The position numbers and the translations under genes are program-made. 64,000 bases of DNA. It comes from TPA_inf: Saccharomyces (taxonomy: Eukaryota). This document shows, piece by piece, positions 51,131 through 60,012 of this stretch (position 1 is the first letter of the stretch; each line of letters starts with the position of its first letter). The DNA lies in assembly GCA_000146045.2 (NCBI GenBank), contig BK006947.3:416001-480000 (forward strand), in the 5' to 3' direction. The notes below the pieces were generated by a model. It made no database searches. It was given only the letters and a program-made list of their open reading frames with translations, and was not told the DNA's origin.

Positions 51131-53623
51131 ATGGCAATCAAGTCATTGGAATCGTTCCTTTTCGAAAGAGGTCTAGTAGGATCCTATGCCATTGAGGCTC
51201 TGAATAATTGTACCCTGGATATAGACGTCAACCATTATGTTTCCAGATTGTTGACCAATAAAAGAGAACAGTATTTGGATGCCATTGGTGGTTTCCCTAC
51301 CAGTTTAAAAATGTATTTGGAAAGCGACTTAAAGATATTCAAGGATTTCAATATTACCCCTATTTTTGTCTTTAATGGTGGTTTGACTTACAACCAATTA
51401 GAGGCATCGGGCCATTTTACTGCAGCATCTGCTTCTGCGTCGATTTCGTCAACCACTACTTCCAGCAGCGGTACCAATGCCACAACAAGATCCAACACGG
51501 AATCCGTTCTTTTGCAGAGAAGTAGAGGCTGGACACAATGGAACAACTTGATTAGTTCGAATCAGAATTCCTATATTGACCAGCCTATTCAACCCCAAGA
51601 GCCATTCAGACATAACACCACAATTGACTCCAAAGCTTACCAAAACGATTTGATCGCTTATTTTATTGAGCATGGGTATATGTACCAAGTGGCTCCTTAC
51701 TCCTCTTGGTTTCAACTAGCATATTTATTGAATAGCGCTTATATTGATGCGATCTACGGCCCAACTGATTGTTTGATGCTAGATTGTGTTGATAGGTTCA
51801 TTTTGGGTATGGAATTTCCAAATAAAGAATTTCGATTCATTGACAGGTCAAGAGTGATGAAGGATTTAGGTTGTACCCATGAAGAGTTTATCGATATTGC
51901 TATGGCTGTAGGTAATGATTTGCAACCAACAACTTTACCACCATTGCAAATTTATCCAGTTCCTCAGCTGTTTGATATTGCTCTAGAAATGGTTTTGAAT
52001 ACAGGTACAAACTTCTATGCCTATCAACTATCTACAACCTTACAAAATGACTCCAAAGAGAATATTCAAAACTACCAAAGAGGTATTTCTGCATTAAGAT
52101 ACATGCCAGTCTTGAAAGATACAGGTAAAGTTGAATTATTTGTTCAAGAGATCGTTGTTTCAGAGGAGGACAGTGAAAAGAATAACAAGGATGGAAAAAA
52201 GAGTAATCTTTCCTCACCATCTTCTGCGTCATCTAGTGCTTCTCCTGCTACCACCGTGACTAAGAACGCTAGTGAAAAGTTAACTTATGAAAAATCCAGC
52301 ACTAAAGAGGTTAGAAAACCAAGAGATATTCCTAATGATGTTCATGATTTTATCGGCCAAATGTTACCTCATGAATACTATTTCTATAGATCCATAGGAC
52401 TGGTTACTGGAAAATTATTTGACGCAATTGTCACAGGAGTTTATCCTGAAGAGCCTCCATTGGGCGGAGGATCTTCTACATCCTACAAGAAACTGGTTTC
52501 CAAGTCCGTTGAAATCTTCAAGAATAAAGAAATCAATTTATTAACTCAACCAATTAACAGATACTATCAGATTAAACAAATTAAACAAGTCAAGTGGTAT
52601 GCGGCAAATGAGCCTACCACTTTGACCAACAGGATGTCACCTTCTATGTTTGAAACTATCAACCACTTAATTGTTAAAACAGAAACGTCTGATGAAAAGG
52701 AATTTTCTATCTCTGAGTTCATTACAACAATAAATGGTTCTAGCAATATGGCGAAAGATTTTATATCTGAAAAAGTCATTTTCCCAAACTCCGTACCAAT
52801 CGAATCCAAATTAAACTCACCATTTAATTTATTGTCGACCAATTTCTTAAGATTACTAGTACTATTGGAGTTCTTCACTTTTGATTTCAAGGAAAAACTG
52901 CTAGAGCCTACGAGATGGGGTGAGGTATTCTTAAAATTAAATGAGCTCAATATTGACAGTAAGTATCACGAATCAGTTATTATCTTTTTGGTATTTTTGA
53001 AATGCGATGTCTTAAAACTTGACGAAGAAGTTCAACCACCGGCTCCCTCAGCCCTATCTCAAGCCACTCTTCGTTCATATCCTGAAGAATCATTGTACGT
53101 CCTATTGATTACGCGTGTATTAACTTTATTTCAAGTGGACCAAAAGCCATCAAATTACCACGGACCAATTGATAAGAAAACTTTGATCTTTAGAGATCAT
53201 CTTTCTTTCATAAAGGAAAATTTAAATGAACTTTTTGAAGCCGTTTTGATCTCATCTTTAACTTCTGGCGAGTTTAATAGATTATCACTTGATAACTTTG
53301 GTTGGGCAAGAAAGATTGTTAGATATTTACCGTTCAAATTAGATTCCCCAAATACTATAATGGCTATGATGTGGGAGTTTTTCTTACAAAAATATCTTCA
53401 CAATGGTAATGCCAAGAATGATGCATTGTCTTTAGTTGCTACTGAATTCAACACTTACAAATCCACACCAAATCTTGATGAACAGTTTGTCGAATCCCAT
53501 AGATTTCTTCTTGAAATTTCAAAAGTCATGCAGGAGCTAAATGCTGCGAAATTAATCGATGAAAACGTGTTTAAATTATTCACTAAAGCAGTTGAGTTTA
53601 CTACAACAGCTCTATCTAGCTGA
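51131..53623 (+). CDS. MKT1: Mkt1 (830 aa), with an N-terminal XPG-like nuclease fold. Codon 30 (51218..51220) is GAT = Asp.
   Basis: MAIKSLESFLFERGLVGSYAIEALNNCTLD(30)IDVNHY.... Length and synteny. Asp30 was read directly. Confidence 0.92.
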   Translation: MAIKSLESFLFERGLVGSYAIEALNNCTLDIDVNHYVSRLLTNKREQYLDAIGGFPTSLKMYLESDLKIFKDFNITPIFVFNGGLTYNQLEASGHFTAASASASISSTTTSSSGTNATTRSNTESVLLQRSRGWTQWNNLISSNQNSYIDQPIQPQEPFRHNTTIDSKAYQNDLIAYFIEHGYMYQVAPYSSWFQLAYLLNSAYIDAIYGPTDCLMLDCVDRFILGMEFPNKEFRFIDRSRVMKDLGCTHEEFIDIAMAVGNDLQPTTLPPLQIYPVPQLFDIALEMVLNTGTNFYAYQLSTTLQNDSKENIQNYQRGISALRYMPVLKDTGKVELFVQEIVVSEEDSEKNNKDGKKSNLSSPSSASSSASPATTVTKNASEKLTYEKSSTKEVRKPRDIPNDVHDFIGQMLPHEYYFYRSIGLVTGKLFDAIVTGVYPEEPPLGGGSSTSYKKLVSKSVEIFKNKEINLLTQPINRYYQIKQIKQVKWYAANEPTTLTNRMSPSMFETINHLIVKTETSDEKEFSISEFITTINGSSNMAKDFISEKVIFPNSVPIESKLNSPFNLLSTNFLRLLVLLEFFTFDFKEKLLEPTRWGEVFLKLNELNIDSKYHESVIIFLVFLKCDVLKLDEEVQPPAPSALSQATLRSYPEESLYVLLITRVLTLFQVDQKPSNYHGPIDKKTLIFRDHLSFIKENLNELFEAVLISSLTSGEFNRLSLDNFGWARKIVRYLPFKLDSPNTIMAMMWEFFLQKYLHNGNAKNDALSLVATEFNTYKSTPNLDEQFVESHRFLLEISKVMQELNAAKLIDENVFKLFTKAVEFTTTALSS

Positions 53624-55376: not shown

Positions 55377-56861
55377 ATGCTGCTGAAAAATTGCGAGACG
55401 GACAAGCAGCGAGATATACGGTATGCGTGTTTGTTCAAGGAACTTGATGTTAAGGGAAATGGTCAAGTTACTCTAGATAATCTGATAAGTGCTTTTGAGA
55501 AGAACGACCATCCGCTCAAGGGAAATGATGAGGCAATCAAAATGCTGTTTACTGCAATGGATGTTAACAAGGACTCTGTAGTTGATTTAAGCGATTTCAA
55601 GAAGTATGCTTCCAATGCCGAATCTCAAATTTGGAACGGCTTCCAGAGGATAGATTTAGATCATGACGGTAAGATTGGCATTAACGAAATAAATAGGTAT
55701 TTGTCAGACCTCGACAACCAGAGCATATGTAATAATGAACTTAATCATGAACTTTCAAATGAAAAGATGAACAAATTCTCGAGGTTTTTTGAATGGGCGT
55801 TTCCAAAGAGAAAAGCCAACATTGCGCTACGAGGCCAGGCTAGCCACAAAAAGAATACTGATAATGATCGGTCAAAGAAAACCACCGACTCAGATTTATA
55901 CGTTACATATGATCAATGGAGAGACTTTTTGCTGCTGGTACCGAGAAAGCAGGGTTCGAGACTTCATACTGCTTATTCCTATTTTTACCTATTCAACGAA
56001 GATGTCGATCTGTCCTCAGAGGGAGATGTTACTCTCATAAACGATTTCATTCGCGGGTTCGGGTTTTTTATTGCTGGTGGTATTTCAGGTGTTATTTCAA
56101 GGACTTGTACCGCGCCATTTGATAGACTGAAAGTGTTTCTCATCGCAAGAACGGATCTATCCTCGATCTTGTTAAATTCAAAAACAGATCTCCTTGCTAA
56201 AAACCCCAATGCTGACATAAACAAGATATCATCTCCATTAGCAAAGGCTGTCAAAAGCTTATATAGGCAAGGCGGGATAAAGGCTTTTTATGTTGGGAAC
56301 GGTTTAAACGTCATCAAAGTTTTTCCAGAAAGTTCGATAAAGTTTGGTTCTTTCGAGGTCACCAAGAAAATAATGACCAAATTAGAAGGCTGCCGCGACA
56401 CAAAAGATCTTTCAAAGTTCTCTACTTACATTGCTGGTGGTTTAGCTGGTATGGCAGCTCAGTTTTCCGTTTATCCTATAGATACTTTGAAATTCAGGGT
56501 GCAGTGCGCTCCTTTGGACACAAAGTTGAAGGGGAATAATTTGCTCTTTCAGACTGCAAAAGATATGTTTCGAGAGGGGGGGGGTCAGATTATTTTACAG
56601 AGGTGTCACAGTCGGTATAGTGGGCATATTTCCCTATGCTGCATTAGATTTGGGGACTTTTTCTGCCTTAAAAAAATGGTATATTGCCAAACAGGCAAAG
56701 ACCCTGAACCTACCACAAGATCAGGTCACTCTAAGCAACCTGGTTGTACTTCCAATGGGTGCATTCAGTGGAACTGTAGGAGCTTCTGTTGTTTATCCAA
56801 TCAATCTTTTAAGAACAAGACTACAAGCCCAAGGAACATATGCACATCCTTATGTGTATAA
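55377..56861 (+). CDS. SAL1: Ca-binding mitochondrial carrier Sal1 (EF-hand N-terminal domain plus three mitochondrial-carrier repeats). As it reads here the ORF is frameshifted in a G9 tract at 56576..56584, so the annotated 494-aa product ends in 92 out-of-frame residues (sal1-1-type allele).
   Basis: EF-hand loops (DVKGNGQVT, DVNKDSVVD, DLDHDGKIG) and carrier repeats 1-2 are in frame 0. After ...KDMFREGG the frame-0 translation becomes Cys-rich nonsense (GQIILQRCHSRYSGHISLCC...). The third carrier repeat continues in frame +1. Confidence 0.9.
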   Translation: MLLKNCETDKQRDIRYACLFKELDVKGNGQVTLDNLISAFEKNDHPLKGNDEAIKMLFTAMDVNKDSVVDLSDFKKYASNAESQIWNGFQRIDLDHDGKIGINEINRYLSDLDNQSICNNELNHELSNEKMNKFSRFFEWAFPKRKANIALRGQASHKKNTDNDRSKKTTDSDLYVTYDQWRDFLLLVPRKQGSRLHTAYSYFYLFNEDVDLSSEGDVTLINDFIRGFGFFIAGGISGVISRTCTAPFDRLKVFLIARTDLSSILLNSKTDLLAKNPNADINKISSPLAKAVKSLYRQGGIKAFYVGNGLNVIKVFPESSIKFGSFEVTKKIMTKLEGCRDTKDLSKFSTYIAGGLAGMAAQFSVYPIDTLKFRVQCAPLDTKLKGNNLLFQTAKDMFREGGGQIILQRCHSRYSGHISLCCIRFGDFFCLKKMVYCQTGKDPEPTTRSGHSKQPGCTSNGCIQWNCRSFCCLSNQSFKNKTTSPRNICTSLCV

Positions 56862-57015
56862 CGGCTTTAAAGATGTTTTGTTAAAGACGCTAGAAAGGGA
56901 AGGTTATCAAGGTCTATTTAAAGGTCTAGTACCAACTTTAGCAAAAGTATGTCCAGCAGTTTCCATCAGCTATTTATGTTACGAAAATCTGAAAAAATTC
57001 ATGAATCTGGAGTAG
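56584..57015 (+). other. SAL1: SAL1 C-terminal coding segment displaced into the +1 frame (third mitochondrial-carrier repeat, VRLFYRGVTVGIVGIFPYAALDLGTF...KKFMNLE, stop 57013..57015). Removing one G from the G9 run restores a contiguous ~545-aa Sal1.
   Basis: The frame-1 translation gives carrier-like motifs (PYAALDLGTF, VYPINLLRTRLQAQG) and is contiguous with frame 0 if the G tract were G8. The 56620..57015 ORF-track entry is part of this segment. Confidence 0.85.
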
Positions 57016-57272: not shown

Positions 57273-57390
57273 CTCTTAATAATCATTATGCGATAAAATG
57301 TTTCACCACATCGAAAACTTATTAATTGAGACAGAAAAAAGGTGTAAGCAAAAGGAACAGAGGTATATCCCTGTGAAATATTTATTTAGC

Positions 57391-60012
57391 ATGACACAAA
57401 TTCATCAGATAAACGATATAGATGTTCATCGAATTACATCTGGACAAGTTATCACCGACTTAACAACTGCAGTGAAAGAACTCGTTGATAATAGTATAGA
57501 TGCGAACGCAAACCAGATCGAAATAATCTTTAAAGATTATGGTCTTGAATCTATCGAATGTTCTGATAATGGTGATGGCATAGACCCTTCAAATTATGAG
57601 TTCTTAGCTTTAAAACATTACACATCAAAAATTGCGAAATTTCAAGATGTTGCTAAAGTACAGACGTTAGGGTTTAGAGGGGAGGCCCTATCTTCTTTAT
57701 GTGGCATAGCTAAACTAAGTGTGATAACAACAACTTCACCACCAAAAGCGGATAAGTTGGAGTATGATATGGTCGGTCACATTACTTCAAAGACAACGAC
57801 ATCAAGAAATAAAGGGACGACCGTGTTAGTTTCGCAGTTATTTCATAACTTGCCCGTTAGACAGAAAGAATTTAGCAAAACTTTTAAGCGCCAGTTTACC
57901 AAATGTCTCACAGTTATACAAGGTTATGCAATCATAAATGCTGCCATTAAATTTTCAGTTTGGAATATCACACCAAAGGGTAAAAAAAATCTAATTCTAT
58001 CAACAATGAGAAATTCAAGTATGAGAAAGAATATATCCTCAGTATTCGGTGCAGGTGGTATGCGTGGGCTTGAAGAGGTTGATTTAGTGCTTGATTTAAA
58101 TCCCTTCAAGAATAGAATGCTTGGGAAATACACCGATGATCCTGATTTCTTAGACCTCGATTATAAAATTCGAGTGAAGGGCTATATATCACAGAATTCG
58201 TTTGGTTGTGGTAGAAATAGTAAGGATAGGCAATTCATTTATGTGAATAAAAGGCCAGTGGAATACTCTACGCTTTTAAAATGCTGCAATGAGGTTTACA
58301 AAACGTTCAATAATGTTCAATTTCCGGCTGTATTTCTCAATCTTGAATTACCCATGAGCTTAATTGATGTAAACGTCACTCCAGACAAAAGAGTGATACT
58401 GTTGCACAACGAACGGGCCGTCATTGATATTTTCAAAACAACTCTCAGTGATTATTACAATAGACAAGAATTAGCTCTTCCCAAAAGAATGTGCTCACAA
58501 TCAGAACAACAAGCTCAGAAAAGACTTAAAACGGAAGTCTTTGATGATAGAAGCACAACACACGAATCCGATAATGAAAACTATCATACCGCCAGAAGCG
58601 AAAGTAATCAATCCAATCATGCACATTTTAATAGTACTACTGGCGTAATAGACAAAAGTAATGGTACAGAACTAACTTCTGTGATGGACGGTAATTATAC
58701 TAATGTCACTGATGTCATCGGTTCGGAGTGTGAAGTTTCGGTTGATTCATCAGTTGTATTGGATGAGGGCAACTCAAGTACACCGACTAAGAAGCTGCCA
58801 AGTATCAAAACAGATTCTCAAAACCTAAGTGATCTGAACCTGAATAATTTTTCCAATCCTGAATTTCAAAATATAACTAGTCCAGATAAAGCACGTAGCT
58901 TGGAAAAAGTTGTTGAAGAACCAGTTTATTTTGATATTGATGGTGAAAAGTTCCAAGAAAAAGCGGTTCTATCACAAGCAGATGGTTTAGTTTTTGTAGA
59001 TAATGAATGTCATGAGCATACAAATGACTGCTGTCATCAAGAAAGAAGAGGAAGTACTGACACAGAACAAGATGATGAAGCTGACTCTATATACGCAGAG
59101 ATTGAGCCAGTTGAAATCAATGTGAGAACTCCTCTAAAGAACTCACGTAAATCGATTTCCAAAGATAATTATAGGTCATTGAGTGATGGATTGACGCATC
59201 GCAAATTCGAAGATGAGATATTGGAGTACAATTTAAGCACAAAAAATTTTAAAGAAATAAGTAAAAATGGCAAACAAATGAGTAGCATCATAAGTAAAAG
59301 AAAATCAGAAGCTCAAGAAAACATTATCAAAAATAAGGACGAACTAGAGGATTTCGAACAAGGAGAAAAGTATCTGACGTTAACAGTTTCAAAAAATGAT
59401 TTTAAAAAAATGGAGGTTGTTGGACAATTTAATTTAGGATTTATCATAGTGACCAGAAAAGTTGATAACAAATATGATCTGTTTATTGTCGATCAGCATG
59501 CAAGTGATGAAAAGTATAATTTCGAAACACTGCAGGCCGTGACAGTTTTTAAATCGCAGAAATTGATAATACCTCAGCCGGTAGAATTAAGTGTCATTGA
59601 TGAACTTGTGGTGCTGGACAATTTACCAGTTTTTGAAAAGAATGGATTCAAATTGAAAATTGACGAAGAAGAAGAGTTTGGCTCCAGAGTTAAGCTGTTA
59701 AGCTTACCTACTTCCAAACAAACCCTTTTTGATTTGGGTGATTTTAATGAACTGATACATTTGATCAAAGAAGACGGTGGGTTACGAAGAGACAACATCA
59801 GATGTTCCAAGATTCGTTCTATGTTTGCTATGAGAGCATGTAGAAGTAGTATAATGATAGGTAAACCGCTGAATAAGAAGACTATGACCAGAGTCGTTCA
59901 TAATCTCAGTGAACTTGATAAGCCTTGGAATTGTCCCCATGGACGTCCAACAATGAGACATTTAATGGAATTACGTGATTGGAGCTCATTTTCGAAGGAT
60001 TACGAAATATGA
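57391..60012 (+). CDS. PMS1: MutL-homologue mismatch-repair protein Pms1 (873 aa from ATG 57391). An in-frame upstream ATG at 57298 would add 31 aa.
   Basis: GHKL ATPase motifs (ELVDNSIDA, DNGDGI, GFRGEAL) and a C-terminal MutL dimerisation/endonuclease region (DQHASDEKYNFE, ..CPHGRPT..). The start choice is discussed in findings. Confidence 0.9.
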   Translation: MTQIHQINDIDVHRITSGQVITDLTTAVKELVDNSIDANANQIEIIFKDYGLESIECSDNGDGIDPSNYEFLALKHYTSKIAKFQDVAKVQTLGFRGEALSSLCGIAKLSVITTTSPPKADKLEYDMVGHITSKTTTSRNKGTTVLVSQLFHNLPVRQKEFSKTFKRQFTKCLTVIQGYAIINAAIKFSVWNITPKGKKNLILSTMRNSSMRKNISSVFGAGGMRGLEEVDLVLDLNPFKNRMLGKYTDDPDFLDLDYKIRVKGYISQNSFGCGRNSKDRQFIYVNKRPVEYSTLLKCCNEVYKTFNNVQFPAVFLNLELPMSLIDVNVTPDKRVILLHNERAVIDIFKTTLSDYYNRQELALPKRMCSQSEQQAQKRLKTEVFDDRSTTHESDNENYHTARSESNQSNHAHFNSTTGVIDKSNGTELTSVMDGNYTNVTDVIGSECEVSVDSSVVLDEGNSSTPTKKLPSIKTDSQNLSDLNLNNFSNPEFQNITSPDKARSLEKVVEEPVYFDIDGEKFQEKAVLSQADGLVFVDNECHEHTNDCCHQERRGSTDTEQDDEADSIYAEIEPVEINVRTPLKNSRKSISKDNYRSLSDGLTHRKFEDEILEYNLSTKNFKEISKNGKQMSSIISKRKSEAQENIIKNKDELEDFEQGEKYLTLTVSKNDFKKMEVVGQFNLGFIIVTRKVDNKYDLFIVDQHASDEKYNFETLQAVTVFKSQKLIIPQPVELSVIDELVVLDNLPVFEKNGFKLKIDEEEEFGSRVKLLSLPTSKQTLFDLGDFNELIHLIKEDGGLRRDNIRCSKIRSMFAMRACRSSIMIGKPLNKKTMTRVVHNLSELDKPWNCPHGRPTMRHLMELRDWSSFSKDYEI

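Follow-up and report, generated by a model that had tools for sequence, protein, structure and literature searches.

The SAL1 gene of the Saccharomyces cerevisiae S288C reference carries the known sal1-1 frameshift, a cluster of three changes at a run of nine G's

We analyzed a window of 64,000 nucleotides from Saccharomyces chromosome XIV and found that its SAL1 gene is almost certainly sal1-1, the allele of the S288C reference, in which a frameshift arising from clustered changes truncates the ATP-Mg/Pi carrier. This allele is already known, and nothing here is new in kind. The result is a caution rather than a discovery: the yeast reference genome has a broken mitochondrial ATP-Mg/Pi carrier gene, and in S288C and BY strains the effect of sal1-1 on petite frequency, on growth, and on the outcome of many QTL studies and deletion screens is well documented. 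Our addition is descriptive only, namely that the functional allele reads GGGTGGGC at the lesion and is not a run of eight G's (G8). Judged against that allele, sal1-1 combines two substitutions, T>G and C>G, with an inserted G, all inside 9 bp, and is not a plain one-base slip. The primary papers on sal1-1 are Chen 2004, Dimitrov et al. 2009, and Kucejova 2008.

The window was placed using a published chrXIV variant table, in which YNL083W spans chrXIV 471377–472861, equivalent to window positions 55377–56861 at an offset of 416000. All 35 of the 35 reference alleles in the table between 456993 and 479898 agree with the window at this offset, compared with 4–14 at shifted offsets. The window is therefore chrXIV:416001–480000 of the S288C reference (sacCer3). 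The gene order is MKT1(30D, 453K)-END3-SAL1-PMS1, with END3 (349 aa, minus strand) upstream and PMS1 downstream of SAL1. This is the known setting of sal1-1, with SAL1 on chrXIV flanked by END3 and PMS1. MKT1 in the window encodes Asp30 (A at 51219) and Lys453 (A at 52488), which are the S288C alleles and lie 4–5 kb from sal1-1.

Several observations on the neighboring genes are recorded here in their own right. Gly30 and Arg453 are found at MKT1 in nearly all other strains compared, and MKT1 and SAL1 are tightly linked and together underlie a chrXIV QTL hotspot. The mechanically called PMS1 ORF starts at 57298 and has 904 aa, and the published YNL082W start, 473391, corresponds to window position 57391 and gives 873 aa. 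In several strains the 5′ extension (57298–57390) is hit by an indel, either a 1-bp loss at 57369 or an insertion at 57303, which argues that the extension is non-coding. Further into PMS1, at 58635, an in-frame 9–12 bp insertion in L007, L009, and L012 results in an 877-aa Pms1 (...NSTCEGTTGV...) as opposed to the 873 aa of S288C.

The features of the SAL1 locus, in window coordinates, are listed below.

55377..56582, plus strand: SAL1 (YNL083W) codons 1–402 in the native frame, comprising the EF-hand domain, carrier repeat 1, and the start of repeat 2 (odd-numbered helix H3 and matrix loop), from the ORF and Pfam.
55767, plus strand: A, the reference state, Met131, from the haplotype comparison and the variant-table line "471767 A G BY".
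56576..56584, plus strand: G9 run, the sal1-1 lesion, where the functional allele has GGGTGGGC (8 nt).
56583..56861, plus strand: out-of-frame tail, residues 403–494 and stop, GQIILQRCHSRYSGH...TSLCV, Cys-rich, without a family match.
56585..57015, plus strand: stranded +1 coding remainder, RLFYRG...KKFMNLE and stop, spanning the even-numbered helix H4 of repeat 2 and the whole third repeat (H5, H6), Mito_carr.

Read directly from the window sequence, positions 56576–56584 are ggggggggg (G9). This is the sole G or C homopolymer longer than 7 within the 64-kb window, for which composition (38% G+C) predicts about 0.04 runs of at least nine G or C by chance. The run starts at base 1200 of the SAL1 ORF. 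The S288C codons at the lesion are GGG GGG GGT C, and the frame is lost at codon 403. Translation of the frame-0 ORF (55377–56861) gives 494 aa that read ...TAKDMFREGG before turning into the Cys-rich tail, and the frame-0 stop lies 154 nt ahead of the normal SAL1 stop. In the +1 frame from 56584, the translation reads VRLFYRGVTVGIVGIFPYAALDLGTF...KKFMNLE, also given as VRLFYRGVTVGIVGIFPYAALDLGTFSALKKWYIA...KKFMNLE, with its stop at 57015. An initial annotation of this DNA had described a SAL1 frame broken at G9, with a Cys-rich frame-0 tail to 56861 and a carrier-coding +1 frame to 57015, and the sequence and translations bear out every one of its coordinates.

Pfam searches agree with this picture of two severed pieces. 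The 92-aa frame-0 tail matches zero families at E ≤ 1, and the +1 piece matches Mito_carr in two stretches with E = 1.9e-27. As it stands, the 494-aa ORF contains two Mito_carr stretches scoring 100 bits, the second of which ends abruptly at residue 402. With one G removed, SAL1 encodes 545 aa with three Mito_carr stretches scoring 205 bits. This joined protein also has EF-hand_7 at residues 18–78 (E about 5e-13) and EF-hand_1 at 89–111, with Mito_carr beginning at residue 231. In a homologue search, full-length budding-yeast orthologues of 511–558 aa span 97–100% of the joined Sal1. Because orthologues across budding yeasts cover the joined protein, the +1 piece is a real coding part of the gene rather than an ORF formed by chance.

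The 494-aa product is identical to NP_014316.3, the Ca(2+)-binding ATP:ADP antiporter SAL1 of S288C, and the lesion amounts to one extra G at codon 403 of 545. In the literature, sal1-1 is given as a 1-bp insertion at chrXIV:472575 (window 56575/56576), in codon 403 of 545, and elsewhere as 1200insG. The position matches, and the proposal in the initial annotation that this is a sal1-1-type S288C allele was correct.

We retrieved the SAL1 locus of other S. cerevisiae assemblies via fused SAL1-PMS1 models, cluster members, and the neighboring END3. The resulting 16 other S. cerevisiae sources consist of 11 assemblies, 2 metagenome contigs, and 3 sources of a different SAL1 allele, called A6 here. 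The site reads GGGTGGGC in 16/16 of these non-S288C-type sources, and in longer context they have CGAGAGGGTGGGCTCAG versus CGAGAGGGGGGGGGTCAG in the window. W303 is in the same GGGTGGGC state according to the published variant table, which lists 472577 GG>G, 472580 G>T, and 472584 G>C. Thus, neither the 16 other sources nor W303 has G9. In one paper, the polymorphism in SAL1 is called private to S288c and/or W303. The functional codons 401–403 are GGT GGG CTC (Gly-Gly-Leu), and the proteins of other strains read REGGLRLFYRG. Compared with the functional allele, the lesion therefore consists of one extra G, a T>G at 56580 that is synonymous (Gly401), and a C>G at 56584, the first base of Leu403. 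The outgroup tracts are interrupted as well, reading GGGTGGGT, GGGCGGAC, and AGGTGGGT. S. mikatae has GGGTGGGTTC, S. kudriavzevii has GGGCGGACTC, and L017, a further Saccharomyces-like orthologue, has AGGTGGGTTC. Since the site is interrupted in both the outgroups and the other strains, the G9 run is derived.

The simplest account of the lesion would be plain homopolymer slippage, in which a functional G8 gained one G to become the G9 of sal1-1. Deletion of one G does restore the frame, and papers usually summarize the lesion as a 1-bp G insertion. The initial annotation likewise implied a G8 functional allele and proposed counting the G's in other strains. We ran this check and the picture of a tract of varying length proved wrong, as other strains are interrupted at the site and G8 occurs in 0/16 sources and not in W303. 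The same annotation held that deleting one G joins the two pieces into an EF-hand carrier of roughly 545 aa. This part stands with respect to length and all three repeats, but the deletion gives Leu403Val (L403V), not the natural Leu403. The Val403 protein, with either Met131 or Val131, was found 0 times in a 15-billion-sequence collection, whereas the functional 545-aa Leu403 protein on the S288C-type backbone is exactly the RM11-1a SAL1 and is present on 419 contigs. We consider slippage improbable as the full account, and G8-to-G9 slippage in that role is refuted by GGGTGGGC in the strains together with the interrupted outgroup tracts. G8 could have been a short-lived intermediate among the ancestors of S288C, with a slip quite possibly as the final step of the three. 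There are two practical consequences. Because the functional allele is GGGTGGGC, a repair or revertant made by the mere removal of one G yields the non-natural Leu403Val protein, and variant callers will list the sal1-1 lesion as three separate variants.

We next turn to how a cluster of three changes could have arisen. Beyond the 9-bp lesion, the S288C SAL1 ORF shows no difference from the functional alleles L003 and L004. By our rough estimate, the chance that three random differences on 1.6 kb share 9 bp is 3 x (9/1639)^2, or about 1e-4, which argues that the three changes are mechanistically linked or at least not independent. In the history that we propose, the ancestral GGT GGG CTC (Gly401 Gly402 Leu403) would have become GGG GGG GGT C in S288C by three changes made together or in quick succession, with the substitutions lengthening the G tract and slippage following. 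A degenerate pattern scan of metagenome contigs for the intermediates GGGGGGGC, GGGTGGGG, or G8 returned two contigs, both with GGGTGGGC, a search that leaves room for unsampled strains and S288C progenitors. That no intermediates occur among about 17 other sequences or in the 15-billion-protein collection is compatible with a single complex event, but is no proof of one. Our tentative suggestion, which we would rate at somewhat less than an even chance, is that one complex event of misaligned or error-prone synthesis made G9 from GGGTGGGC, leaving an allele unusually revertible by the loss of one G. If so, a G9 run shortened by one G would encode a full-length Leu403Val carrier, and selection (respiratory or aac2-delta) could bring SAL1 function back at appreciable frequency in S288C-derived cultures. 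A literature search on combined terms returned no paper on sal1-1 reversion or on a homopolymer description of the allele.

The G9 run is also present in two further sequences. Over 9,050 bp, L008, a Logan assembly of run DRR531724, differs from the window at 1 position and L013 (GCA_947370305.1) at 2. Since they are nearly identical to the window, both belong to the S288C family. These two carriers bear directly on whether G9 is a sequencing or assembly artefact in a SAL1 gene that is really intact. Homopolymers are error-prone on some platforms, and some public SAL1 models break the frame at T runs in an error-like manner, such as that of Lalvin QA23 (252 aa). However, the same G9 appears in two independent assemblies, and a sal1-1-type truncated protein with Val131, named [quoted passage not shown] in UniRef, is present on 57 contigs. 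A pure length error would also leave the two substitutions unexplained. Furthermore, one published study inspected read alignments at the site and reports from allele replacement that removal of the frameshift speeds the growth of BY and that sal1-1 slows growth in YPD. Several laboratories have also repaired the frameshift, which lowered petite frequency, and such repair is routine in engineered strains. An artefact has a negligible chance of explaining these data, and sequencing error is ruled out by the two independent assemblies. The initial annotation was thus right to take G9 as real.

The carriers do not all share one haplotype. At 55767 the window has A (Met131), which is also the outgroup state, and BY4742, L008, and L013, all sal1-1, have G (Val131). 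Val131 is also found in the functional alleles L009, L011, and L012. On this comparison, Met131 at 55767 marks the window as the reference version of sal1-1. The allele therefore occurs on two backgrounds, told apart by a site 809 bp upstream of the lesion, which points to recombination within the laboratory pedigree or to a second mutation there. A look-up of the exact reference 494-aa (Met131) protein returned zero gene positions on record, because the other carriers found have Val131. L013, with gene models prefixed ACA, joins G9 and MKT1 Lys453 with MKT1 Gly30 (the equivalent of window 51219, Asp30 in S288C) and otherwise equals the window over 9 kb. It may be an S288C relative older than the D30 mutation, or else a strain that was engineered or arose by recombination.

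The lesion arose recently and is limited to the S288C family. Downstream of it, the stranded 3′ coding sequence is base-identical to most functional alleles compared, the exceptions being a silent C>T at 56613 (L002) and the A6 allele. It carries no further damage, probably owing to the recent origin of the lesion. A +1 frame that continues without further damage would also be expected if G9 were a programmed ribosomal or transcriptional slippage site from which useful full-length Sal1 is still made, and long homopolymers can give low-level transcriptional slippage. However, the recent origin of the lesion already accounts for the undamaged downstream frame. Programmed frameshifting is recognized by a slippery sequence conserved in orthologues, and the other SAL1 genes are a single uninterrupted ORF, with G9 absent in every other strain and species examined and hence not a conserved signal. 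The loss-of-function genetics also argue against recoding, as papers report that aac2-delta tolerance is strain-specific and depends on SAL1 and that repair improves growth and mtDNA stability. We regard recoding as very improbable, and programmed frameshifting was rejected since G9 is unconserved among the strains and species examined.

With G9 taken as a true frameshift, we looked at which parts of the carrier are lost. Alignment to the ADP/ATP carrier structures 4c9j and 1okc places residue 403 at the "GLRGLYQG" segment of bovine AAC1, before H4. The pattern of this segment is "G-L-R-x-L/F-Y-x-G", ahead of the even-numbered helix of repeat 2. We take the helix boundaries to follow those of 1OKC (bovine AAC1), in which case H1–H3 would be kept and H4, H5, and H6 lost in the S288C product. 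The shift at codon 403 falls just ahead of the conserved [FY]xG motif leading into H4, and 92 unrelated residues follow. With the EF-hands and H1–H3 but without H4–H6, the product would be unable to form a carrier. The N-terminal EF-hand regulatory domain that defines this carrier subfamily is present, and the 494-aa S288C product does not have the three tandem Mito_carr repeats in one polypeptide that make up the six-helix carrier domain. SAL1 is thus, as far as its sequence indicates, a member of the carrier family (SLC25) by descent whose S288C product is an incomplete carrier. With half of the carrier barrel gone, the truncated Sal1 is probably a transport null.

This expectation is consistent with the published genetics. 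A review gives the function of Sal1 as Ca2+-dependent import of ATP-Mg in exchange for Pi. SAL1 is also reported to be the gene required for aac2-delta survival, which explains why some strains tolerate the loss of AAC2 and others do not. The secondary literature describes sal1-1 as a loss of function, with aac2-delta synthetic lethality and raised petite frequency. In the absence of Sal1, net mitochondrial ATP import would be left to Aac2/Aac3, and this reliance would explain the lethality of aac2-delta in the S288C background. According to one paper, sal1-1 together with CAT5-91I and MIP1-661A makes the mtDNA loss rate about 100-fold higher in BY strains. The statement in the initial annotation that this allele contributes to mitochondrial-genome instability is in line with papers that tie it to petites and mtDNA loss. 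The allele also emerges as a QTL in S288C crosses.

We also observed two side effects in public annotation. SAL1 and PMS1 are fused into 1,390–1,394-aa models by a spurious intron (...VPTLAK|INDIDVHR...) in the long-read annotations L001–L004, L010, L011, and L014. Through these fused models, SAL1 and PMS1 end up in a single 90%-identity cluster with a PMS1 representative, and therefore S. cerevisiae Sal1 is hidden from a homologue search. Additionally, the orthologues P0037, P0054, and P0112 (Monosporozyma unispora, M. servazzii, and Candida anglica) are full-length Sal1 proteins of 542–546 aa, and their NCBI name is [quoted passage not shown]. Evidently, a label that belongs to the S288C allele has spread by similarity to intact orthologues.

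A second natural frameshift was found in SAL1. The A6 allele is present in strain ADM (GCA_030035835.1) and two metagenome S. cerevisiae contigs (L020, L021, L022), and the window has A7 at the equivalent positions, 56670–56676. Its product is 442 aa ending in ...ALKNGILPNRQRP, with an orphan 86-aa ORF left over. Like sal1-1, the A7-to-A6 frameshift removes the last carrier repeat, and it lies 86 bp downstream of G9. Unlike sal1-1, it is a one-base loss in an existing A7, on a different haplotype with a normal GGGTGGGC. As A6 is independent of sal1-1, SAL1 has been inactivated in nature more than once.

In general, the window allele is equal to the sal1-1 of the literature in locus, position, and 494-aa product. 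Where published accounts give a "1-bp insertion", our comparison adds two flanking substitutions, T>G and C>G. Both substitutions are already in the published W303 variant table, and the papers examined make no comment on them. Functional Sal1, as in RM11-1a, W303, and others, has 544–545 aa and three carrier repeats, whereas that of S288C is without H4–H6. The joined S288C Sal1 shares 91–92% protein identity with Sal1 of S. mikatae and S. kudriavzevii. Further afield, Sal1 resembles the human SCaMC/APC carriers (SLC25A23/24/25) in having an EF-hand regulatory N-terminus fused to a carrier domain and in the function described, ATP-Mg/Pi exchange. There is a match at about 1e-11 between the Sal1 N-terminus and 4zcu and 4n5x, structures of the SCaMC-1 regulatory domain, and the carrier part can be aligned to structures of ADP/ATP carriers. 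Sal1 differs from the human carriers in that its sequence is distant from theirs and the S288C allele is a truncated null.
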